9,144 nt of DNA, from positions 1-9,144 of the forward strand of contig JAJRQD010000040.1 in assembly GCA_024280435.1 (NCBI GenBank), written 5' to 3'. The translations under genes were made by a program, and so were the position numbers. The DNA comes from an archaeon (GTDB lineage Archaea; Asgardarchaeota; Heimdallarchaeia; Heimdallarchaeales; Kariarchaeaceae). The notes under the pieces were generated by a model. That model was given only the letters and a program-made list of their open reading frames with translations. It made no database searches and was not told the origin of the DNA. Below, piece by piece: positions 1 to 9,144 of the stretch; position 1 is the first letter of the stretch; every line of letters starts with the position of its first letter.

Positions 1-342
1 CACTCCAATCGTCCGATCCGCCAATCCATAAAGCTCTGGTGCATCATCTCTCAATTCCAACACAAGTGTTAATGGCCCGGGCAATAATTCCAACAATGGT
101 TTTATTCTATCAGTAATCACTGCATATTTTTCCACCTGTTCAACTGATGCAAAAGCATAGGATACAGGTTTGCTGAGATCTCTTTTCTTCAGCTCAAATA
201 GCCGTTTCACTGATCTTTCATTATCACCAACACAGCCAATTCCCACCACAGTCTCTGTGGGATAAACCATTATTGCACCCTTCCTCAACATATTAATGAT
301 CTGTATGCTGTATCTGTCAATATCATCCAACTCTATATCCAT
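1..342 (-). CDS. sua5: L-threonylcarbamoyladenylate synthase (Sua5/YrdC/YwlC family), N-terminal 114 codons; the 3' end runs off the left edge of the window
   Basis: Absent from the ORF track because it is open at the window edge. Hand translation of the minus strand from the ATG at 342-340 gives MDIELDDIDRYSIQIINMLRKGAIMVYPTETVVGIGCVGDNERSVKRLFELKKRDLSKPVSYAFASVEQVEKYAVITDRIKPLLELLPGPLTLVLELRDDAPELYGLADRTIGV. The YPTETVxGxG segment followed by K(K)RxxxKP is the YrdC-domain signature as I remember it. A GAGGTGA Shine-Dalgarno lies 7 nt upstream. The start is 8 nt downstream of the preceding gene's stop. Confidence 0.8.
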   Translation of the reverse strand, partial: MDIELDDIDRYSIQIINMLRKGAIMVYPTETVVGIGCVGDNERSVKRLFELKKRDLSKPVSYAFASVEQVEKYAVITDRIKPLLELLPGPLTLVLELRDDAPELYGLADRTIGV

Positions 343-349
343 AATGAAA

Positions 350-1285
350 TCACCTCTTAGCATTGAACCAATCTATAATCCACTGATGTAATTTATCCCT
401 CTCAGGCCCCATCAATGATGAATGAGGGGAATTCTCAAGATCTCTGAATTCAGTTGGAGTATCAGGAAAGAACTTTCTGAACTCTTCTGGTTGATCTATC
501 AGGGTCTTATGATCATTCAAGGAACGTACATACAGAACTGGTAATTTCAATCTATCATTTCTCTTTCTAAGTACCTTACCAACCTCAAATATTCCTGCCA
601 CAGCATATAACGGTTGTACAAGATATGAACTCAATCCTGCATCTTTTATCATTCTCTTCTTTCTTCTGGATCTGGGCCAGTATTTGATGAATGCAGATAG
701 TTGTCTCACAAATCTTGCAGATGGGATATGCAGATTAACAGGTGTATTCAATGTGATTATTGTCTCAATTGGATAAATAGTGCTAAGTAGCAATCCAAGA
801 GTACCACCTAGTGAATGCCCAAGATAGAATACTCTGTTGTATTTTTCGGGTATCTGTTGATAATGCCACACAACAGATGCAAACCAGTGTTCACCACTAG
901 TTATAGCCATATGTGCGGGAGTAGTACCATGTCCGGATAGACGAATTGTACGGAAATAATAACCCTGTTCTGCAAGAAGTACCCCGATCTCTCTGAATAT
1001 CTCAGGTGTGGATCCAAAGCCATGACTTGCTAGGATTGCAATACCATTTGGGTTTTCTGGATGTATCTCATAGTATCTTGCCTGTGGTCTAATACCTCGA
1101 TCCACTGTTTTAGGAGAGAATATCCATTTGAACAGAGTAATAGGATCTTTGAATGAGGAGGAGAGAACTGTACGGATTAATCTTAACTCCTTTTTAATTA
1201 CTCTTCTGAAAATACTCAACATAGAGGGTTTTCTATAGATTTCCACTTTCTCCACATCAAATTTCTCTTCCAACATCTGCTTCAT
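350..1285 (-). CDS. alpha/beta-fold hydrolase (carboxylesterase / lysophospholipase-like), 311 aa
   Basis: ORF track. HGFGSTP oxyanion-region motif. GHSLGG nucleophile elbow (GxSxG). Candidate acid and His residues lie late in the protein (SLNDH, SPHSS). ATG start with a GGAGG SD upstream. Packed 3 nt from the upstream ORF and 8 nt from sua5. Confidence 0.8.
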   Translation of the reverse strand: MKQMLEEKFDVEKVEIYRKPSMLSIFRRVIKKELRLIRTVLSSSFKDPITLFKWIFSPKTVDRGIRPQARYYEIHPENPNGIAILASHGFGSTPEIFREIGVLLAEQGYYFRTIRLSGHGTTPAHMAITSGEHWFASVVWHYQQIPEKYNRVFYLGHSLGGTLGLLLSTIYPIETIITLNTPVNLHIPSARFVRQLSAFIKYWPRSRRKKRMIKDAGLSSYLVQPLYAVAGIFEVGKVLRKRNDRLKLPVLYVRSLNDHKTLIDQPEEFRKFFPDTPTEFRDLENSPHSSLMGPERDKLHQWIIDWFNAKR

Positions 1286-1288
1286 TTA

Positions 1289-1753
1289 CTATTCCTCCAG
1301 TGAATCTATCAGTTGCTCCAGTATATCAATATGAGCAGGTTCTTTTCTAGCCAACCTAGAGATTATTGGCATGATTATAACAAATGTAAACATCGGAATA
1401 ATTACATTGAGTGCCCAGTCCAATTGCATGAAACCTTTATTCTCACCTGTTGATCGATCAAGGAAAAAGAAAAACAATACAAACAACATACCACCTATTG
1501 GGACAAATAACCAGCCATAATCGGGATTTGTTCTAAGAAACTGTGTTGTTATGTAGAATATCCAGATACCAACAGTCGCCCAATGAGCCCATTCCAAACC
1601 ATCTGAATTCTTATTATTCACTATATCCAATGCAATCAGCATCAATGATAGTAGTGTAATAATTGAAGGAGTGGCCCATTTATGAAAGGAATACACACTG
1701 GGAACCCTCAGATCATAGCCACAGGAGGGACAGCGTTCCATTTTTTTATTCAT
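1289..1753 (-). CDS. hypothetical integral membrane protein with an N-terminal CxxC zinc-ribbon-like motif (about 154 aa from ATG 1753)
   Basis: The ORF track starts at a GTG at 1789. I prefer the ATG at 1753 (MNKKMERCPSCGYDL...) because a TATA-like TTATATTT (minus strand, plus coordinates 1778-1785) is centred about 28 nt upstream of it, which fits a leaderless mRNA. CPSCGYDL is followed by about four hydrophobic segments. No family recognised. Confidence 0.6.
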   Translation of the reverse strand: MNKKMERCPSCGYDLRVPSVYSFHKWATPSIITLLSLMLIALDIVNNKNSDGLEWAHWATVGIWIFYITTQFLRTNPDYGWLFVPIGGMLFVLFFFFLDRSTGENKGFMQLDWALNVIIPMFTFVIIMPIISRLARKEPAHIDILEQLIDSLEE

Positions 1754-1777
1754 ATCTGTTTGATCGTTCACATTACT

Positions 1778-1785
1778 AAAATATA
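1778..1785 (-). promoter_or_regulatory. candidate TATA box for the membrane protein / hydrolase / sua5 transcription unit
   Basis: Minus strand reads GTTATATTTTAG, centred about 28 nt upstream of ATG 1753. Identified by spacing and composition only, in a very AT-rich spacer. Confidence 0.3.
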
Positions 1786-2286
1786 ACACACTTTTATGAA
1801 GTTATACACCTACTAGTAGCTAGAATAAAAAATATTATGAATAAACTTGTGTCCAAATAAAATATAACTTGGATTTATTGTCAAAAATAATTTACTTGGA
1901 TTTGTATTAGATGGAAAAATGTAGCTGAGAAAAGTATTAAATTAATAGATGCATATCAAACGCGGAAAAAGAATGGATTAGGAGATATGTCAGTTATCTC
2001 ATATCCACTATTATTGCATCTAAATACGTACAAATCCAGATTTACAAAAATAATGGTATTTTTATACTGATCTGATATTTATACGTGAATGAATACTAAT
2101 TTTATCGATATTCCATGTGCTAGATCAACAACCATCTTAAAAAAAAAATATATAACCAATAATAACCACAGTAAAACAAGAACTCAAAATAAATTGAGAA
2201 ACAAGATGTATGATATCATCAAGTTAAAAATAACTGATACAATAGAAATATCAGTAATAATTGTAATTATAAAATATTACAAGAAT

Positions 2287-2359
2287 GGGCTGTTAGCTCA
2301 GCTGGTAGAGCGTTTGGTTCGCAATCAAAAGGCCGCGGGTTCAAATCCCGCACAGTCCA
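2287..2359 (+). tRNA. tRNA-Ala (anticodon CGC), 73 nt, no encoded CCA, no intron
   Basis: Hand-folded cloverleaf: acceptor GGGCTGT/ACAGTCC with the G3:U70 alanine identity pair. D arm GCTC-AGCTGGTA-GAGC. Anticodon arm TTTGG-TTCGCAA-TCAAA (positions 34-36 = CGC). Variable loop AGGCC. T arm GCGGG-TTCAAAT-CCCGC. Discriminator A. Confidence 0.93.
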
Positions 2360-2590
2360 TAAAATTAAATTACAATCATGAGAGCCATACATCACAGACA
2401 TATTTCAACTGTGAAATTATAAGACGAACAGAGGACAGGTACAATAGCTGTCGATAGAAATGCAATAAAAGTAACACCAGAGAACCAAAATACATTCAAT
2501 AGTGACATCACCTGTACTTGTGAAAATAACCTCTCAACTTAAAATTTGTACGTGCAAATAAGATGATGCAATATATAAACCAAAAATAAA

Positions 2591-3088
2591 CTACCCCTCA
2601 ATACCACCAAACTCATCCACTCTCAACTGAGTAGAAGATACAAGCCGCCCAGATTTATCCCTCAACCAAGGTATCACAATAACATCCAACGGAACCAAAC
2701 CATTCCCCTCACGAATAGAATTTATACTCACACCACTAGACTGTGTCTCCCTGGAAACCACAAGAGCGCCATTATCAGTCTCATCATAAGGTGCAGGACC
2801 CCAGTAATCAAACAACTCACCCACCGCAAACTCTATACCAAATGTAGACAGAAAATCAACCACACTAACAGACCTAAGATCATACGATTGTATCTTATCA
2901 CCATGTACCTTGTTACTAAACAACTCTAAACCCAACTCATCAGATACAACCCCAACAAACACATTATCAGAAATCATCACCGCAGTACGTATCAAAGACT
3001 CATGCGCATGATGAAATCTATCAAATGTACCACCCAAAAATGCCATATCATAGGGTTTCTTATCAGTATAAATATTCTCGAAATCCAT
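2591..3088 (-). CDS. coaD: archaeal-type phosphopantetheine adenylyltransferase (cytidylyltransferase-like fold), about 165 aa
   Basis: ORF track protein carries the GGTFDRFHHAH nucleotidyltransferase (H/T)xGH motif. It also has the C-terminal ...VVSRET...PL..IVIP......G..VSST.LR pattern seen in archaeal PPATs (from memory). The track start at 3106 is a TTG. I prefer the ATG at 3088 (MDFENIY...) because TTTAAATT on the minus strand (3119-3126) sits too close to 3106 to serve it. Confidence 0.75.
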   Translation of the reverse strand: MDFENIYTDKKPYDMAFLGGTFDRFHHAHESLIRTAVMISDNVFVGVVSDELGLELFSNKVHGDKIQSYDLRSVSVVDFLSTFGIEFAVGELFDYWGPAPYDETDNGALVVSRETQSSGVSINSIREGNGLVPLDVIVIPWLRDKSGRLVSSTQLRVDEFGGIEG

Positions 3089-3156
3089 AGTTTTATTACT
3101 TAGCAACCATTTTAATACAATTTAAACATTTACTTAACGCGTTAGCGAACTTTAAG

Positions 3157-3164
3157 TTTAAATA
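3157..3164 (+). promoter_or_regulatory. candidate TATA box (TTTAAATA) for the 5S rRNA transcription unit
   Basis: TTTAAATA at 3157-3164. The expected TSS about 23-25 nt downstream falls near G3187, which is exactly where the G+C-richer structured sequence begins. It is divergent from the PPAT TATA candidate at 3119-3126. Confidence 0.4.
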
Positions 3165-3239
3165 TAACAGCAATAGATATTGATTTGTCGAAAAACACTC
3201 ACGAGTGAACCGACAACCAATCCACTCCGGTGGAAGTAA

Positions 3240-3436
3240 ATGCTTACCCACTATTTTAAAGGTCGCTTTCAACAAGAAAGTTAAGCCTCTCATCGTATGC
3301 TTCTGTACTAATTTGCGCGAGCAATTGGGAACATCATAACGCTGGCACTCGATGCCGGCCATAGAGAGAGGGTTCACCAAGTAACATCCGAACCTTGATA
3401 TTGATTGTGATGCTGATTAGAATAGTGGGTAGGCAT
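3240..3436 (+). rRNA. 5S rRNA gene in circularly permuted order, with flanking inverted repeat. The 3' part of 5S (helix II 3' strand through helix I 3' strand) is 3277-3347, the CUCGA cap is 3348-3352, and the 5' part (helix I 5' strand through loop C and helix III) is 3353-3398
   Basis: Segment 3277-3347 reads AAAGUUAAGCCUCUCAUCGUAUGCUUCUGUACUAAUUUGCGCGAGCAAUUGGGAACAUCAUAACGCUGGCA. It matches the remembered archaeal 5S 3' portion (GAAGUUAAGCC ... GAGUACUGGAGUGCGCGAGCCUCUGGGAAAC ...). Segment 3353-3398 reads UGCCGGCCAUAGAGAGAGGGUUCACCAAGUAACAUCCGAACCUUGA. It matches the 5S 5' portion (GGCGGCCACAGCGG....CCAUCCCGAAC). Every 5S helix can be formed across the two pieces: helix I GCUGGCA(3341-3347)/UGCCGGC(3353-3359); helix II GAGAGG(3366-3371)/CCUCUC(3286-3291); helix III CAAG(3378-3381)/CUUG(3394-3397) around the 12-nt loop UAACAUCCGAAC; helix IV CUAAUU(3308-3313)/AAUUGG(3323-3328) around UGCGCGAGC; helix V UAUG(3296-3299)/CAUA(3335-3338). 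The two pieces total 46+71 = 117 nt. The unit is flanked by the 20-bp inverted repeat 3240-3259/3417-3436 and followed by T7. Confidence 0.75.
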
Positions 3437-3442
3437 TTTTTT
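3436..3442 (+). terminator. oligo-T (T7) archaeal-type terminator directly after the 3' arm of the 5S flanking stem
   Basis: TTTTTTT at 3436-3442 on the plus strand, immediately following the inverted-repeat arm. Confidence 0.5.
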
Positions 3443-3599
3443 ATCGAAAAATTTTGTATTTTTGGTTATTGATGTTATGTGTTGGTTATTTATAAGCAAG
3501 CATGATATTTCACCTGATCTCTGCAATAGTCACATTTATTGCAATCTATTGGTTCATACTGAGAGGTGGGTACATCGCAAATTATTTTTTATTGTTATT

Positions 3600-3795
3600 A
3601 TTTTTTCAAAGTCTTATTTCATGGATGTACTTTTTTTTCTAAAAAAATAATTTGCGCGAGTAATTGGGAACATTATGAGATGGGTGCTTGATGACGGACA
3701 TATATGGTTTTTACCAGATGTATCCGAATTTTTAAAAAAATGATTTTATTGTGTTGGTAAGTATGTATTCAGATACAATAATAGTGGATATGGGG
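3600..3795 (+). pseudogene. decayed paralogue of the permuted 5S unit, in the same permuted order and probably non-functional
   Basis: 3648-3673 TAATTTGCGCGAGTAATTGGGAACAT matches 3309-3334 at 25/26 positions. GATGACGGACATA matches GATGCCGGCCATA at 11/13. ATCCGAA (3722-3728) is conserved. AATAGTGGATATGG (3779-3792) resembles AATAGTGGGTAGGC (3421-3434). However, the helix I and helix II strands no longer pair, and a T8-CT-A7 block (3631-3647) is inserted inside it. Boundaries are approximate. Confidence 0.5.
3729..3740. terminator. T5/A7 block, a possible bidirectional oligo-T terminator
   Basis: TTTTTAAAAAAA at 3729-3740 gives T5 on the plus strand and T7 on the minus strand. It is the first minus-strand T-run downstream of nop10, so the aIF2-alpha/nop10 transcript may read through the tandem array to this point. 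Confidence 0.3.
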
Positions 3796-3796
3796 C

Positions 3797-4020
3797 TACT
3801 GTTCTGTGTGGTCATATTATTGGAGTTTATCATTTTCTGAATACTGTTTTTTGTATGGTCAGATTATTGGAGCTTATTACTTTCTGTATGGTCTTATTAT
3901 TGGAGTTCATCACTTTCTGAATACTGTTTTTTGTATGGTCAGATTATTGGAGTTCATCACTTTCTGAATACTGTTTTCTGTATGGTCAGATTATAGGTGT
4001 TCATTATTTTCTGTACAGTC
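3797..4020 (-). repeat. tandem repeat array of five full units (33, 47, 47, 33, 47 nt) plus a partial unit; the first unit contains the last five codons and the stop codon of nop10
   Basis: Units read on the minus strand: 4020-3988 GACTGTACAGAAAATAATGAACACCTATAATCT; 3987-3941 GACCATACAGAAAACAGTATTCAGAAAGTGATGAACTCCAATAATCT; 3940-3894 GACCATACAAAAAACAGTATTCAGAAAGTGATGAACTCCAATAATAA; 3893-3861 GACCATACAGAAAGTAATAAGCTCCAATAATCT; 3860-3814 GACCATACAAAAAACAGTATTCAGAAAATGATAAACTCCAATAATAT; 3813-3797 partial. The long units equal the short unit plus a 14-nt insertion. Confidence 0.9.
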
Positions 4021-4147
4021 TTCTGAATTTCTTCTCTTTAACAAGTGAGAACCTTGCGGGGTATGGATGGATTGATTTACCACCACATTGGCATTTATCA
4101 TGAAGACTATATTTTCCACATTCAATGCATCTGTACATAGTTTTCAT
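4004..4147 (-). CDS. nop10: H/ACA ribonucleoprotein complex subunit Nop10 (47 aa); missing from the ORF track
   Basis: Hand translation of the minus strand from ATG 4147-4145 gives MKTMYRCIECGKYSLHDKCQCGGKSIHPYPARFSLVKEKKFRRLYRK, with the stop TAA at 4006-4004. It has the four-Cys zinc ribbon plus the P.P.RFS segment typical of archaeal Nop10. An AGGTG SD lies upstream. It sits 9 nt downstream of the aIF2-alpha stop, which is the conserved archaeal aIF2-alpha/nop10 gene pair. Confidence 0.9.
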   Translation of the reverse strand: MKTMYRCIECGKYSLHDKCQCGGKSIHPYPARFSLVKEKKFRRLYRK

Positions 4148-4156
4148 TATTTACAC

Positions 4157-4966
4157 CTAGTTTTTATTTTTCTGTTGAACTATTTTGTATTCAACATTGA
4201 GATCTTTGCTTGCCTCTGTAAGATTTTTCTCAATTGCAATATATGCCTCATTTATTTCAGGATAAGATCTTCCTTCAAGATGAATTCGATATTGTGGACT
4301 ACCAATTGTGGTGATCTCACTCTCAATCTCTGGAAATTGTTTCACAGTATCCTCTGCTACTTTTAATAGACTTTTTACCTGTTCCACACCATCAGGAGAG
4401 AATGAACGTATACCAACATCAGCAGAGATCACAACAGTGGATACCTGAATACTCATCACAGCAGATTCATGTATTATTTTTGCAAGTTCGGGATCTATAT
4501 CCATGAAATCAAGTACTTCAATACCTGTAAATGCTAATTCTTCAAATCCCACATATAAAGAGCCGAATTCCCTGAGAAATGGTTTCTCAAGTAGTTCTCT
4601 CAGCTCTTCTGCAGTCTGTGGTACTTTTTTAGCAATTATACCAATCAACGCAAGTGCGGAGTTCTGTTTTTTATATTCTGCAATTTTATCTTTCTTCAGC
4701 GATTCAGATACTCTTTTGATACTGAGATCTATCTGATTGGTCACTCTGTTTACCCTTAACACACGTCCAACTATTGATTGATCCTGTCTTACAAAATTCC
4801 TTATATTTCTTACCCATGCACCGGTGATCTCTGATACATGTACGTATCCCTCTACACCCTCATATTCTTTTAATTTCACATATACACCGTGTTTGGTAAT
4901 TTTACTTACCACACCAATTACAAAGTCATGCTTTTGTGGTAACTTAATTTTTGTTTTCTCTGACAT
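4157..4966 (-). CDS. eif2a: translation initiation factor 2 subunit alpha (aIF2-alpha), 269 aa
   Basis: ORF track. The N-terminal S1/OB domain (P..G..V.G.V..I...G.YV.L.EY.G.EG.VH.SE......RNIR) is followed by helical and alpha/beta domains. The length is typical for the family. ATG start with a GGTGA SD. nop10 lies directly downstream. Confidence 0.9.
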   Translation of the reverse strand: MSEKTKIKLPQKHDFVIGVVSKITKHGVYVKLKEYEGVEGYVHVSEITGAWVRNIRNFVRQDQSIVGRVLRVNRVTNQIDLSIKRVSESLKKDKIAEYKKQNSALALIGIIAKKVPQTAEELRELLEKPFLREFGSLYVGFEELAFTGIEVLDFMDIDPELAKIIHESAVMSIQVSTVVISADVGIRSFSPDGVEQVKSLLKVAEDTVKQFPEIESEITTIGSPQYRIHLEGRSYPEINEAYIAIEKNLTEASKDLNVEYKIVQQKNKN

Positions 4967-5071
4967 TTATTTCACCTATCTATAATAATAATATTTCATC
5001 GATTGATATAAAGTTGAAGTTAGTATCATGTTATTATTTGTACGTACAAATTTTAAGTTCTACTAAAAATA

Positions 5072-5422
5072 CTAGATAGATTTGTTTTTATTTTCCAGAT
5101 ATTTATCGATTAATTGTTTTATATGTGTAAGATTGATTGAGCTATCATTTTCTATGTATACAGAGCCATAGGTGATTTTATTCACTTGTTTTGATATTAT
5201 CTGAGTGATTGCAGTTGCAAATGCTTCGTTTTTTCCGGTAAAAATAACTATTCTGTCCAGCATTCCAGGATATGCAACCGAGTATGATCCCATTTTTATA
5301 TTGTTATCATATATTGATAGATGGATGGCATTTTCATACTCAGTAACAAACAGGTTCAATATCAATTCATCATGTATCTCAAGATCAAAATGTAGTGTGT
5401 TTGGGATTATCTTATCTTCCAT
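5072..5422 (-). CDS. hypothetical protein, 116 aa; family not recognised
   Basis: ORF track. ATG start with an AGGTGG SD. It overlaps the 3' end of the upstream 71-aa ORF by 16 nt, which suggests translational coupling. Composition matches the neighbouring genes. I cannot assign a family from the sequence. Confidence 0.6.
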   Translation of the reverse strand: MEDKIIPNTLHFDLEIHDELILNLFVTEYENAIHLSIYDNNIKMGSYSVAYPGMLDRIVIFTGKNEAFATAITQIISKQVNKITYGSVYIENDSSINLTHIKQLIDKYLENKNKSI

Positions 5423-5622
5423 ATAAAACCACCTTTTCCTATTTCTCGTGTAATCAATCCCTCTTCCAACAGCTTCATAGCAATTCTAATGATATTACTA
5501 CCAGATCTGCATCCTCTGCAAATATCGGGATATTTTCTTGCCTCTGTAAGTATGTCATGAGTGCTCATATAGTTGGCATTGTTCAGTATGCGAAGTATAC
5601 ACTCACGAGATCTATCATACAT
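5407..5622 (-). CDS. small winged-helix (wHTH) DNA-binding protein, 71 aa
   Basis: ORF track. It shows an ILRIL....MSTHDIL......(recognition-helix-like IIRIAMKLLEEGLI)..E...GGFIWKI pattern typical of minimal wHTH proteins. A CRGC pair is present. It starts 10 nt after the FAU-1 stop and overlaps the next ORF. Confidence 0.6.
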   Translation of the reverse strand: MYDRSRECILRILNNANYMSTHDILTEARKYPDICRGCRSGSNIIRIAMKLLEEGLITREIGKGGFIWKIR

Positions 5623-5631
5623 TTGAAAAAC

Positions 5632-7062
5632 CTATTTGAATATAATATACTCGTCGTTTTCCTGTAATCTATCAGATGCGAACCTGTATACCTCTCCAAG
5701 CTTCTCATTCATAGCATCAGAGATCATATTCTGATCAACCATATTCAATTCATTGTGATCTGTCAACAGATTGATCAGCTCGCCATTGGCATAGTATAGA
5801 TCCATACCCATATCGAATGCTCTTACTCTGCCTCTGTATATCATATCGAGTGGTGTGATAATCTTCACTCTCTGTCCAATCAACTCATTAGATATACCAG
5901 AATAGTATTTGTAATGTATGGTCCATGAACCGGGTACAAATATTACCTCCATTATATCCTGTACTGCAAGATCAAGATTAGATACCGCATCAACATCTGA
6001 TTGCGACATTGATTTTCTGGTGATGAAATATTCTTTGTTCTCAATTATATCACCAAGATTGTACTCTTCATTAATTCCATCTGCAAAATGGAACTCTGCT
6101 TTGATATGATTATTTATGGGATAATCCCGTTCCATTATCATCGCATTCAGTGTATTACTCATCTCATCAACAGTGATCTTATCAAGGAATTTCTTGGCAA
6201 AATCAAGTGTGAACCCAGTAGAATATGAATATGCTTTGAAATGATGATAATTTGGAATTGTTGTCTCTATATCAGCTCTTATCTCATCAAAGTATTTTTT
6301 ACTATCATATCCGAATATTATCTCTGATTGTACCTCTCCGGAGACCAGTCTTTTTGGCTCTCTCTCATCATCCAGTTCCTCATCTATATCTTTCCACAGA
6401 TTGGCCAACTGCTCTATCTCAAAGTTAAGAGATTCTTTATCTATATTGGTGGCACTTGTTCTGATTATTATTCCAAAGCCATCGGGTAGTAATTCTTTTC
6501 CAATATCATGTAATCTCTTTCTCTCTGCTCCTTTGATCTTTCTAGAGACTCTGACAAAGGATGAACCGATCTCAAGTATCACATAGTTTCCACTTAATGT
6601 CAATAATTCAGAACATACAGGTAATTTACCTTTCTCTGCGGTGAGCTCCTTAACCTGTACCAGTATCAACTGCCCCTGTTGTCCCTCAAAATTGAACAGA
6701 ATTGCCTGTCTCTCATTTCCAATATCCAGTATAGCAAGTTTCTTACGATAAATATGCTTGCTAACTCTTGCAAGATATATTGAATCCTGTTGAATCTCCT
6801 GTTTAAACAGTACACAGTCGGGTAATTCCTCTTGTAATGTATTCTCAATCATTTTCACAGCACTGGATATACCTTTTATCTGTATTCCAATACGCTTATC
6901 CAGATCACCGATATGCACATCATGAGGTTGTATATTTGCATCTGTATTCTGATTTAAATTGTGTGAGGAGAGAATTGAGAAGTTCCCTGTATCCTTTAGT
7001 ATTTTACCAAGAGCCAGATCATATATTGAATCGATCCTAACTCTGGCTAGTATTTCTGTCAT
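5632..7062 (-). CDS. fau-1: RNA-binding protein / probable ribonuclease FAU-1 (archaeal RNase E/G-like domain plus a C-terminal DUF402-like region), 476 aa
   Basis: ORF track. The length matches archaeal FAU-1 (about 470 aa). The central GFGIIIRTSA motif and the preceding S1-like segment resemble the RNase E/G catalytic core. CTTTAAAC on the minus strand (TTTAAA at 7088-7093) is centred about 28 nt upstream of the ATG, consistent with a leaderless mRNA. Confidence 0.7.
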   Translation of the reverse strand: MTEILARVRIDSIYDLALGKILKDTGNFSILSSHNLNQNTDANIQPHDVHIGDLDKRIGIQIKGISSAVKMIENTLQEELPDCVLFKQEIQQDSIYLARVSKHIYRKKLAILDIGNERQAILFNFEGQQGQLILVQVKELTAEKGKLPVCSELLTLSGNYVILEIGSSFVRVSRKIKGAERKRLHDIGKELLPDGFGIIIRTSATNIDKESLNFEIEQLANLWKDIDEELDDEREPKRLVSGEVQSEIIFGYDSKKYFDEIRADIETTIPNYHHFKAYSYSTGFTLDFAKKFLDKITVDEMSNTLNAMIMERDYPINNHIKAEFHFADGINEEYNLGDIIENKEYFITRKSMSQSDVDAVSNLDLAVQDIMEVIFVPGSWTIHYKYYSGISNELIGQRVKIITPLDMIYRGRVRAFDMGMDLYYANGELINLLTDHNELNMVDQNMISDAMNEKLGEVYRFASDRLQENDEYIIFK

Positions 7063-7087
7063 CTATAATTTGCAATTTCAGCAAGTG

Positions 7088-7093
7088 TTTAAA
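7088..7093 (-). promoter_or_regulatory. candidate TATA box for the FAU-1 / wHTH / 116-aa unit
   Basis: Minus strand reads TTTCTTTAAACAC, centred about 28 nt upstream of ATG 7062. Identified by spacing only. Confidence 0.3.
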
Positions 7094-7144
7094 GAAATTA
7101 TTAAAGTAATACTAGTGATTAAGTGTAGATATAAAAATAATTGA

Positions 7145-7702
7145 TCAATCTGGGTTCCATGGTTTGAGCAGGCTATGCTTTATTCCCAACAGGTTCAGTA
7201 CCTTCCCCACCACAAAATCAATGATATCTTCAATTGATTTTGGATTGTAATAAAACCCAGGTGATGCGGGTAATATTGATGCACCAGCTTCTTTTGCAAG
7301 TATCATATTCTTCAGATGTATCATATTGAGAGGTGTCTCTCGAAGCACTAGTATCAATCTCTGCTCCTCTTTCAATCTGCAATCTGCTGCTCTATGAATA
7401 AGGTTCTGAGATAGTCCATTTGCAATAGCTGCAAGTGTTTTCATAGAGCATGGAACTACCACCATACCATCAGATGGATGGGTACCCGATGCAATAGCAG
7501 CACCTATATTCTTGATATCATAGCTAACAGTTGCTTTGTTGAATATATGATCCACAGATTTTTTTACCTCGTATTCAATTACTTTCCTAGCACCATCTGA
7601 TACAACCAGATCTATCTCATGACCTAGTTCATACAGTACTTCTATTAATCTTAACCCATACTGTACACCACTGGCACCAGATATTGCAACTATTACTCTC
7701 AC
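7145..7702 (-). CDS. ubiX: flavin prenyltransferase UbiX (prenyl-FMN synthase), 185 aa
   Basis: ORF track. The N-terminal (M)RVIVAISGASG flavoprotein motif, the ...VVVPCSMKTLAAIANG... segment and the typical length support the call. The start codon is GTG. It is supported by AAAATAAAT on the minus strand (plus coordinates 7725-7733), centred about 27 nt upstream, which fits a leaderless mRNA. Confidence 0.85.
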   Translation of the reverse strand: MRVIVAISGASGVQYGLRLIEVLYELGHEIDLVVSDGARKVIEYEVKKSVDHIFNKATVSYDIKNIGAAIASGTHPSDGMVVVPCSMKTLAAIANGLSQNLIHRAADCRLKEEQRLILVLRETPLNMIHLKNMILAKEAGASILPASPGFYYNPKSIEDIIDFVVGKVLNLLGIKHSLLKPWNPD

Positions 7703-7887
7703 GTATTACAGATAATGATAGAACATTTATTTTCATCTATTGATGAGGCTGATTTTATCAACAATTTAAGTGAATACATTGAATTCAATAATATAATCAA
7801 TTGAATATGTATCACTAATTCATACGCTTATAATTGATATATGGATGATAAAATTGTATTACAATTAAAACCTATTGTGAGACAAGA

Positions 7888-9120
7888 TTAACAATATTCA
7901 TGCCCTGTATTCTTAAGTTTGGATAATAATCCAGGACCCGATCTGATTCCAAATGGATCATCAGAATGTAAAATTGAATTAACAGGTATACCATCACTCC
8001 ACAAGCCCATATCCCAGGCATTATCACCAAGAAAGTAAGTACTGGCTGTGTCATCTCCTGCAATAAATGCAGCCATTGCATCTATTCTCTTGTAATATCC
8101 ATATATAGATAATGGATCAATCAATGCATCTGCTGGAAGATAATGTGTTGCAACCAATCTTGGAAAACCATATCTATCAGATTGAATCAGTAAATACTCA
8201 ATATTATCATGATTGAGGTCGGATGAATTATCTCTTGAAATCATTCTCTCATACTGCCTCATCCCGATGCATTGACTTACTAGATGGTCCTCATCATAGC
8301 CTACAACATTTACCCAGGTATTATTTGGTAATATACTCATATCAACATCAAATCCCTCCCATTGCAATGTGATATAAGGTGCTTCCATATCAAGTACAAG
8401 TCTATTATCAGCCCATCCTTTTTTAATCATCTCAGTTGCAACCCAGGGAACCATGCCCCCTCCCATACTATGACCGAGTATAAGCATATTATCCAGATCC
8501 ACTGTATTGTTATTCATCAGAATATCAAGATTACTTATTCTACTGCTATTACCAACTACTGCCTCTAATGCCTGTAGTAATCCGGACATCAGCATTTTGT
8601 ATCTCACCATCATATATTGATCATGCGTATAGTTTGCATCAACCTCCAACTCCTTAGAGACAGTTATTTGTGTGGCATACTGCACATAGATTGCAATAGT
8701 ACCTCTTGATGCAAGAGTAGACATTGTTGTCTTGTAATCAGAATATGTACCTGCATAGCCATGCAGTAAAATTGATACCGGTAGCTGTTTGGATACCTCA
8801 GTTATCGGGATATATATCCGAGTATACCATGTATTATTAGCCATATCAACTTCAGGATGGATAATATCTGAGATATCAGATGGGATTGAATGTTCAATAC
8901 TGATAATATTGTATTCAAATGGTCTTGTACTTCCTCCATATCCAGTCTCTGGTTGTTCAGGTGGTTTTGGATAGAACCCCAGCATTGGAACAATATTTGG
9001 AACAATCAGACTGAATGCAATGACTAGTACTAGCATATATTTCAATGCCTTCAGTTTATTCTTATAACCCTTGATAATGGTCTTATTAGTAATGATCTCT
9101 CTATCATTAATTATCTGCAC
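7888..9120 (-). CDS. membrane-anchored or secreted alpha/beta-fold hydrolase (esterase/lipase-like), about 410 aa; start uncertain
   Basis: ORF track. A Lys-rich N-terminus is followed by one hydrophobic segment (MLVLVIAFSLIVPNIVPML), then a PKPPEQPE linker. LLHGYAG and the GHSMGGG nucleophile elbow are present. The track start is a GTG at 9120. The frame stays open to the window edge (9144), and an internal ATG lies at 9036, so the true start is unresolved. Confidence 0.7.
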   Translation of the reverse strand: MQIINDREIITNKTIIKGYKNKLKALKYMLVLVIAFSLIVPNIVPMLGFYPKPPEQPETGYGGSTRPFEYNIISIEHSIPSDISDIIHPEVDMANNTWYTRIYIPITEVSKQLPVSILLHGYAGTYSDYKTTMSTLASRGTIAIYVQYATQITVSKELEVDANYTHDQYMMVRYKMLMSGLLQALEAVVGNSSRISNLDILMNNNTVDLDNMLILGHSMGGGMVPWVATEMIKKGWADNRLVLDMEAPYITLQWEGFDVDMSILPNNTWVNVVGYDEDHLVSQCIGMRQYERMISRDNSSDLNHDNIEYLLIQSDRYGFPRLVATHYLPADALIDPLSIYGYYKRIDAMAAFIAGDDTASTYFLGDNAWDMGLWSDGIPVNSILHSDDPFGIRSGPGLLSKLKNTGHEYC

Positions 9121-9144
9121 TGAGATTACTATTAAAAAAATAAA

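Follow-up and report, generated by a model that had tools for sequence, protein, structure and literature searches.

Evidence that a bulge-helix-bulge stem accompanies a circularly permuted 5S rRNA gene in Asgard archaea

Asgard archaea are the closest known relatives of eukaryotes, and 5S rRNA is a universal component of the ribosome whose gene is normally trivial to find. The stretch of DNA analysed here (9,144 nt, positions 1 to 9,144 of the forward strand of contig JAJRQD010000040.1, assembly GCA_024280435.1; referred to below, at its full length, as the window) comes from an Asgard archaeon of the family Kariarchaeaceae (Heimdallarchaeia), and at positions 3240-3442 it carries a long leader/trailer stem around 5S-like sequence. 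Two questions are raised by this locus: which gene the stem encloses, and what the stem does for it. We consider it likely that the region forms a transcription unit of its own, encoding a circularly permuted 5S rRNA, and that the stem is the signal by which the order of the RNA is restored. In open-access papers and bioRxiv no description of a permuted or circular archaeal 5S gene was found, a prior report elsewhere being possible, and the conserved bulge-helix-bulge (BHB) stem of a circularly permuted 5S gene appears to be previously undescribed.

A scan of the intact window against Rfam returned no 5S rRNA even at E-values up to 10, and at the same limit no family, including the permuted mitochondrial 5S family (mtPerm-5S), matched positions 3240-3440. 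When two parts of the region were offered as truncated stretches, the best match of 3277-3344 was to positions 49-114 of the 5S model RF00001 as a 5'-cut hit (20.1 bits, E 0.019), and that of 3351-3397 was to model positions 1-49 as a 3'-cut hit (15.3 bits, E 0.23). The gene order runs from the 3' part through a helix I hairpin with a CUCGA loop to the 5' part:

3277-3344, + strand: 5S 3' part, comprising the 3' side of loop B, the 3' strand of helix II, helices V and IV, and the 3' strand of helix I (RF00001 49-114).
3341-3359, + strand: helix I hairpin, GCUGGCA (3341-3347) with UGCCGGC (3353-3359), its loop CUCGA (3348-3352) replacing the usual 5S ends.
3351-3397, + strand: 5S 5' part, comprising the 5' strand of helix I, loop A (CAUAG), the 5' strand of helix II, and helix III with loop C (RF00001 1-49).

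By homology, the permutation break falls between G3397 and A3277. Instead of a colinear 5'-to-3' order with free helix I ends, the region has a permuted order in which helix I is a closed hairpin, and the element is a 5S homologue, not a canonical 5S gene. The features expected of a permuted RNA gene are all found: a 3' part upstream of the 5' part, a short loop joining the native termini, and, at the new termini, a BHB in which leader and trailer pair.

Relatives were sought with a DNA pattern of the permuted order (helix IV/V motifs, then loop A, then loop C), scanned against a species-representative genome collection and a metagenome collection. The former yielded six true matches, namely Njordarchaeum guaymaensis, three Heimdallarchaeota metagenome-assembled genomes (MAGs) and two further archaea; the other eight of its 14 matches (L004-L008, L011, L012 and L015) were rejected as chance hits in bacterial or coding DNA, or as normal 5S genes with a chance match downstream. 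Four matches came from the metagenome collection, two of them new sequences. More permuted genes were reached through synteny with homologues of a neighbouring phosphopantetheine adenylyltransferase-like (PPAT) gene. They lie in a MAG of Lokiarchaeota, on a Helarchaeota contig and, as a tandem pair, in an unclassified Asgard MAG; the contigs reached through homologues P0002, P0004 and P0006 contain no 5S. The set comprised 13 permuted genes including that of the window, drawn from independent assemblies and metagenomes that represent four or more Asgard lineages (Heimdall, Njord, Hel and Loki; lineage labels of several loci are taken from database naming). A covariance model seeded with the first ten of them scored the genes reached by synteny at 101-125 bits, and found the non-seed loci L023, L024 and L037 at 115-125 bits.

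The consensus fold of ten permuted genes contains helices I-V in permuted order, with compensatory changes in 20 of 27 pairs (5 of 7 in helix I). Invariant 5S motifs are shared by the alignments of permuted and canonical genes: loop A CAUAG, loop C CCGAAC, UUAAGCC, and GCGCGAG...GGGAA. Once re-opened, the predicted products aligned colinearly and end to end with four canonical 5S genes (L033 and L035, Asgard-type; L008, haloarchaeal; L011, Thermoplasmata), and products and canonical genes folded jointly into the standard 5S shape, 21 of 27 pairs being compensatory.

These data bear on the reading that the element is non-functional, whether as a 5S pseudogene produced by rearrangement, as an artefact of assembly, or as a hairpin or terminator that arose by chance. 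It might draw on the origin of the sequence in a metagenome-assembled genome and on a decayed copy next door:

3607-3756, + strand: tandem duplicate, now decayed, of the entire permuted unit with part of its trailer; probably a pseudogene.

The copy aligns end to end (78% identity over 55 nt), but its helices I-III are broken, an A/T hairpin is inserted after GUAC, and it scores only a partial match of 12.4 bits in the covariance model, against 138 for the intact unit. It was rejected as a second functional gene on the grounds of the broken helices and the partial match, and serves instead as a picture of decay with which the intact unit contrasts. With 13 permuted genes in independent assemblies or metagenomes of at least four lineages and compensatory changes in every helix, covariation effectively refutes a non-functional element, which we regard as extremely improbable.

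One other locus (L024) carries two tandem permuted 5S genes (2486-2640 and 2676-2832, - strand). In the downstream copy helix IV and the junction are divergent, while helix II is compensated (GCUCUCA/UGAGAGG vs GCUCUGA/UCAGAGG); a BHB was looked for in this copy and not found. It may be a functional paralogue.

How does the stem relate to this gene? Its arms, and the interrupted helix between them and the break, are as follows:

3238-3259, + strand: leader arm of the 22-bp distal processing helix (repeat analysis, fold, shuffle maximum 14).
3260-3268, + strand: interrupted middle helix, leader side, with A3260, G3261 and 3262-3266 paired and U3267-U3268 in a U/U loop.
3405-3416, + strand: interrupted middle helix, trailer side, with the U/U loop, 3407-3411, a G3412 bulge, C3413, U3414 and a GA bulge.
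3417-3438, + strand: trailer arm of the 22-bp distal helix (repeat analysis, fold, shuffles).

The pairings that the earlier note on this DNA, made from the sequence, had listed are all present: 20 consecutive base pairs between 3240-3259 and 3417-3436 (two of them G:U), then A3260:U3414 and G3261:C3413, five pairs of 3262-3266 with 3407-3411 (two G:U), a 2 × 2 U/U internal loop, UCAA (3269-3272) with UUGA (3401-3404), an unpaired AUA (3398-3400), and CAAG (3273-3276) with CUUG (3394-3397). Repeat analysis extends the 20-bp core by A3238 and A3239 with U3437 and U3438 to the 22-bp helix. The stem reaches the 5S break as the note had it, but the break itself is not at C3393 where the note had placed it. 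Across 3187-3450 the longest uninterrupted stem is 22 bp; in 200 dinucleotide shuffles the longest stem averaged 9.8 bp and never exceeded 14. Folding of 3230-3445 gave a z-score of -5.7, and the leader/trailer stem is far above chance level. Cofolding of leader and trailer reproduces the interrupted middle helix of the window.

Signals that could delimit a transcript lie on either side:

3157-3166, + strand: TATA-box-like element TTTAAATATA, read from the sequence, a putative archaeal promoter of the pre-5S transcript.
3436-3442, + strand: run of seven T at the base of the stem, probably acting as an archaeal transcription stop.

A comparable A/T box is found about 25-80 nt upstream of the stem in related loci, and T-runs also lie 3' of the stem in L003, L013, L009 and L014.

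The part of the stem next to the break is where a processing signal would be expected to act. In the BHB of archaeal pre-tRNA (37/38 intron), each bulge lies 3' of its own strand's segment of the central helix, and cleavage takes place after the second bulge nucleotide. With this geometry, a 3-4-3 BHB is formed in the window by a 4-bp central helix (CAAG 3273-3276 with CUUG 3394-3397), two 3-nt bulges on opposite strands (AAA 3277-3279 and AUA 3398-3400), an outer helix h (UCAA 3269-3272 with UUGA 3401-3404) and an inner helix h' (GUU 3280-3282 with AAC 3391-3393):

3269-3272, + strand: outer helix h, leader strand UCAA, pairing with 3401-3404 (motif scan, cofold, covariation in 13 loci).
3273-3276, + strand: central helix, leader strand CAAG, pairing with CUUG 3394-3397; a copy of the 5' strand of helix III at 3378-3381.
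3277-3279, + strand: leader bulge AAA, with a rule-based predicted cut between A3278 and A3279, making A3279 the first retained nucleotide.
3391-3393, + strand: inner helix h', trailer-side strand AAC, pairing with GUU 3280-3282.
3394-3397, + strand: central helix, trailer-side strand CUUG; also the 3' strand of mature helix III.
3398-3400, + strand: trailer bulge AUA, with a rule-based predicted cut between U3399 and A3400.
3401-3404, + strand: outer helix h, trailer strand UUGA.

Beyond the 4 bp of the outer helix and the U/U loop, 5, 2 and 22 bp follow. The motif is canonical rather than relaxed. The note had seen a single 3-nt bulge and hence at best a relaxed motif, a reading that failed because it took UCAA:UUGA as the central helix, the mirror image of a real BHB; the second bulge, AAA 3277-3279, lies on the other side of CAAG:CUUG. 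In the UCAA:UUGA register, rejected here, AUA would be a bulge 5' on its own strand and so of the wrong handedness, and the partner site would be the U/U loop. With a shifted BHB register the product would be some 5 nt too long, and a second BHB within the 22-bp helix of the window (UUAA/UUAG or UUUA/UAGA) was discarded since it competes with an unbroken helix favoured in every fold. Among 20,000 shuffled leaders, none formed such a BHB at the junction position. Since strict scans of single loci return several unrelated BHB motifs in each 350 nt, the motif has no significance by itself, and the argument is carried by its position and its conservation.

The same BHB geometry, in differing sequence, is found at the same place in the 12 other permuted 5S genes. 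Covariation was assessed in all 13 loci with a gap-free leader and trailer alignment anchored on the central helix, with a constant spacer between segments. In this alignment 81.4% of cells pair, compared with 47.6% after shuffling and 25-42% after the partner had been slid by 1-3 columns, and the covariation score is 0.82, compared with 0.11-0.24 when slid; the alignment was built around the proposed structure, which the slide controls offset only partly. Double changes affect all 12 outer-helix pairs and three of the four central-helix pairs, and the two helices are 85% and 96% paired, respectively. The central helices found are CAAG:CUUG, CGAG:CUCG, CCAG:CUGG, CCGG:UCGG, GCCG:CGGC and UCCG:CGGA. 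All 13 loci have a trailer bulge of 3 nt, and leader and trailer cofolding returned central helix and 3-nt trailer bulge in ten of them; on the leader side three nucleotides are unpaired in every locus, opening outside the Heimdall type into a larger loop (bulge-helix-loop form). The covariation of the two arms that the note had named as a check on its proposal is present in relatives, and its proposal of a permuted 5S gene with a leader/trailer stem bearing a splicing-endonuclease motif emerges on firmer ground than it had claimed.

Variants of the architecture were seen in other loci. In Hel/Loki-type loci (L014, about 3000-3205; L037, about 10580-10790; L023, about 8405-8610) a second hBHBh' motif lies 20-21 nt further out on both strands, with flanking helices of 10-16 bp and central helices GUAC:GUAC, UACA:UGUA and UGCA:UGCA. 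The window is without one. The nesting of the two BHBs suggests that processing takes two steps, with a circle of about 165 nt in between. Locus L019 (about 494-700, - strand) has an extra 10-bp leader hairpin (CUAAAUUCGG-CGAA-CCGAAUUUAG), the 3' arm of which duplicates the junction sequence, together with an A·C mismatch in the junction-proximal central helix and an alternative BHB (UGCC:GGCA) upstream.

What would such a stem do to the RNA? Under the rule given above, the splicing endonuclease (EndA) would cut after the second nucleotide of each bulge, between A3278 and A3279 and between U3399 and A3400, and RtcB ligase would join U3399 to A3279 into a circle of 121 nt, in which the joined sequence would rebuild the loop B / helix III strand of 5S rRNA:

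3279-3399, + strand: predicted product of excision and ligation, a circular 5S rRNA of 121 nt with the junction ...CCUUGAU/AGUUAAGCC... (BHB rule; the slash marks the joint here and below).

With the leader removed, CUUG 3394-3397 would re-pair with the internal CAAG 3378-3381 as helix III. The earlier note had pointed out these two possible partners of CUUG, and since both pairings covary across loci, a conformational switch from precursor stem to helix III is a reasonable proposal. We infer EndA cleavage, RtcB ligation and a final circular form.

In the window the predicted junction reads CAUCCGAACCUUGAU/AGUUAAGCCUCUCAUCG, or in shorter form ...AACCUUGAU/AGUUAAGCC...; the corresponding 30-mers are CATCCGAACCTTGAT/AGTTAAGCCTCTCAT for the window type and CGAACACGGAAG/TTAAGCCTTCA for the Hel/Loki type. 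Applied to all 13 loci, the BHB rule yields products of 121-124 nt. The break is offset by 1-3 nt between lineages, in that the Hel/Loki type takes 'AAG' from the trailer and 'UUAAGCC' from the leader, and the predicted Hel/Loki junction, ...ACGGAAG/UUAAGCC... (equivalent to ...CGAACACGGAAG/UUAAGCC...), is identical to canonical 5S.

These junctions speak to a reading in which the product stays permuted and linear, leader and trailer being trimmed by EndA or other nucleases without ligation and the ends lying between helix III and loop B. The mature 5S rRNA of brown-algal mitochondria is permuted (PMC4267664), and a nick here would fall in an internal loop or bulge, where it might be tolerated. 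For simple trimming, however, a conserved and covarying BHB exactly at the break would be superfluous; RtcB normally acts on EndA products that a helix keeps together, as in 16S and 23S rRNA, introns and signal recognition particle (SRP) RNA; and the BHB rule restores a junction of consensus length even where the break is shifted, which matters only if the ends are joined. We consider a permuted linear product improbable.

If the ends are joined, the circle might still be re-opened, within the helix I loop CUCGA (3348-3352), to give a linear product from a circular intermediate. Precedents exist in the permuted tRNAs of Cyanidioschyzon (PMC3978253) and in Pyrococcus 23S rRNA, which is re-opened similarly (PMC7758197), and a gene for an RNase E/G-like protein of the FAU-1 type (5632-7062, - strand), a family linked to pre-5S rRNA processing in Thermococcales (PMC7758197), lies 2.2 kb from the 5S unit, a proximity that may be coincidence. 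The Heimdall-type helix I loops, with 5-6 nt (CUCGA, CUUGA, CACGA and CUUUGA) in place of UNCG tetraloops, could carry a signal. Helix I is nevertheless capped in eight of the 13 loci by UUCG (seven) or UCCG (one), which are very stable and show no common cleavage motif, and by AUUUUA in the Lokiarchaeota locus; no conserved loop sequence is evident across lineages, and helix I, at 7-9 bp, has no nucleotides to spare for trimming. Re-linearisation therefore seems to us rather unlikely, though less so than a product that was never ligated. Given the stable tetraloops and the lack of a shared loop motif, we lean towards a circle that stays closed and enters the ribosome with a loop-capped helix I.

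Several points weigh against the circularly permuted gene and its proposed processing. Both RF00001 half-matches are under the gathering score of 38 bits, and only one 16-kb contig of the host genome is in view, so that a second, canonical 5S gene may lie elsewhere. The outer helix adjoining the BHB has only 4 bp in the window, and the inner helix is 49% paired overall, being kept only in four Heimdall-type loci. In the minimum-free-energy fold of the whole precursor the BHB is absent, a local leader hairpin forms and the 5S core is mis-folded; as neither BHB nor 5S fold was recovered, this folding was set aside as uninformative, which is why leader and trailer cofolding and covariation were used. 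The Heimdall-type junction, that of the window included, is 1 nt longer than the consensus (GAUAGUUAAGCC vs GGAAGUUAAGCC); the cut site could be off by one, or the extra nucleotide may be a feature of the lineage, with a 3-nt bulge there. Transcription, cleavage, ligation and circularity are all predicted from sequence, and according to a 2026 paper circles are used in the processing of archaeal 16S and 23S rRNA, not of 5S (PMC12918454).

How far the arrangement extends among Asgard archaea, and how it arose, can be approached through synteny. The PPAT-like gene (CTP_transf_like; 2591-3106 of the window, - strand) is a conserved neighbour of 5S across Asgard lineages, found also at L003, L010, L013, L014 and L017. 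In a control run at the gathering threshold, Rfam detected ordinary 5S genes (85 and 82 bits) at the DUF1512-x-PPAT locus of two other lineages, one of them Borrarchaeum/Sifarchaeia by cluster names, and no 5S in six permuted loci. Canonical 5S genes occupy the syntenic locus at 946-1065 of L035 and 77-196 of L033, and also in L028-L032 and L034. Detectable 5S has been reported for Borrarchaeum MAGs (PMC9723677), consistent with this control. Canonical genes stand at the same DUF1512-x-PPAT locus, and the permutation therefore seemingly took place in situ within Asgard archaea. The decayed duplicate at 3607-3756 fits an origin by tandem duplication.

A wider reading follows these lines: in many Asgard archaea (Heimdall-, Njord-, Hel- and Loki-type) the sole 5S gene would be permuted, its biogenesis would depend on EndA and ligase, and the ribosome would hold 5S rRNA as a covalently closed circle, the permutation having arisen in place by tandem duplication from a canonical gene such as that of Sifarchaeia. 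For this sweeping claim about sole genes, biogenesis and the ribosome we see the chances as evenly balanced.

The remaining observations concern the surroundings of the unit. Besides the PPAT-like gene and the RNase E/G-like FAU-1 gene, the window encodes aIF2-alpha. An inverted repeat of 32 nt (91% complementary; 2000-2031 and 3761-3792, arms 1.7 kb apart) encloses a tRNA-Ala gene, the PPAT gene, the permuted 5S gene and the 5S pseudogene, and may be a remnant of an inversion, or of a segment able to move or invert. Read on the - strand, 3797-4022 holds tandem repeats with periods of 33, 47 and 80 nt and a C/D-box-like arrangement (GUGAUGA, 11 nt, CUGA); in Rfam it gave only weak C/D-box matches (SNORD57, E 3.8). 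C/D box sRNA genes adjoin a permuted SRP RNA gene as well (Plagens et al., PMC4731332). A sub-threshold Rfam match to 'PGK RNA' at 8835-8913 (+ strand; 34.4 bits vs a gathering score of 50.8, E 0.34), within the open reading frame 7888-9120, is probably due to chance.

MAG quality standards demand a 5S gene. If the wider reading is true, MAGs with a permuted 5S gene are penalised under these standards, and a permuted covariance model would close the annotation gap. The permuted order may likewise explain why 5S is 'missing' from closed Heimdallarchaeum genomes, in which, according to their authors, it could not be predicted (PMC8813620). EndA and RtcB would be essential for ribosome assembly, beyond their part in tRNA, and the last rRNA would be added to the archaeal rRNAs that pass through or stay as circles, in contradiction to the statement that excludes 5S. 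The locus would also offer a clean example of a gene permuted in place, with a canonical relative in the syntenic position, and the exact junction sequence is a testable prediction in organisms now cultured or in metatranscriptomes.

Among known systems, a permuted 5S gene has a counterpart in brown algae, in which the mitochondrial 5S rRNA is permuted (Valach et al. 2014, PMC4267664; mtPerm-5S in Rfam). Both have a permuted gene order and a hairpin in place of the usual open end. They differ in compartment and in break point, which falls at helix III / loop B here and between the alpha and gamma domains in mtPerm-5S; furthermore, the algal RNA is without a BHB and is permuted and linear in its mature form. 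Circles of 5S have been seen in Sulfolobus and Halobacterium, at low level, unvalidated and from normal genes (PMC3326292).

Permuted tRNA genes of Cyanidioschyzon merolae and Thermofilum pendens (PMC3978253, PMC3218864) share the order with the 3' half first and the BHB at the leader/trailer junction, and pass through a circular RNA intermediate. In tRNA maturation RNase P and tRNase Z open the circle again at the acceptor stem, whereas an equivalent opening signal is not evident here.

Along with the algal 5S, the closest precedents include the circularly permuted SRP RNA gene of Thermoproteus tenax and T. uzoniensis, the RNA of which is circularised by the splicing endonuclease machinery (Plagens et al. 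2015, PMC4731332). There too the 3' part lies upstream of the 5' part with a leader/trailer BHB at the junction, the endonuclease cuts at the BHB to give a functional circle, and the canonical gene was likewise 'missing' from annotation. Unlike that case, which is limited to a few species of a single genus, the present one concerns an rRNA, extends over several Asgard lineages, has a strict 3-4-3 BHB, and is proposed from sequence. As for rRNA itself, archaeal 16S and 23S pre-rRNAs carry BHB processing stems and form circular intermediates, and circular or permuted 23S rRNA occurs in ribosomes (PMC7714728, PMC12918454, PMC7758197). They resemble the present unit in their long leader/trailer helix bearing a BHB, from which EndA and RtcB yield circular rRNA species. 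In the open-access literature and bioRxiv, 5S figures as the one rRNA outside this pathway. The 16S and 23S genes are colinear, however, and their circularisation is a detour of maturation, whereas in the permuted 5S gene the circle would restore the connectivity of the RNA.

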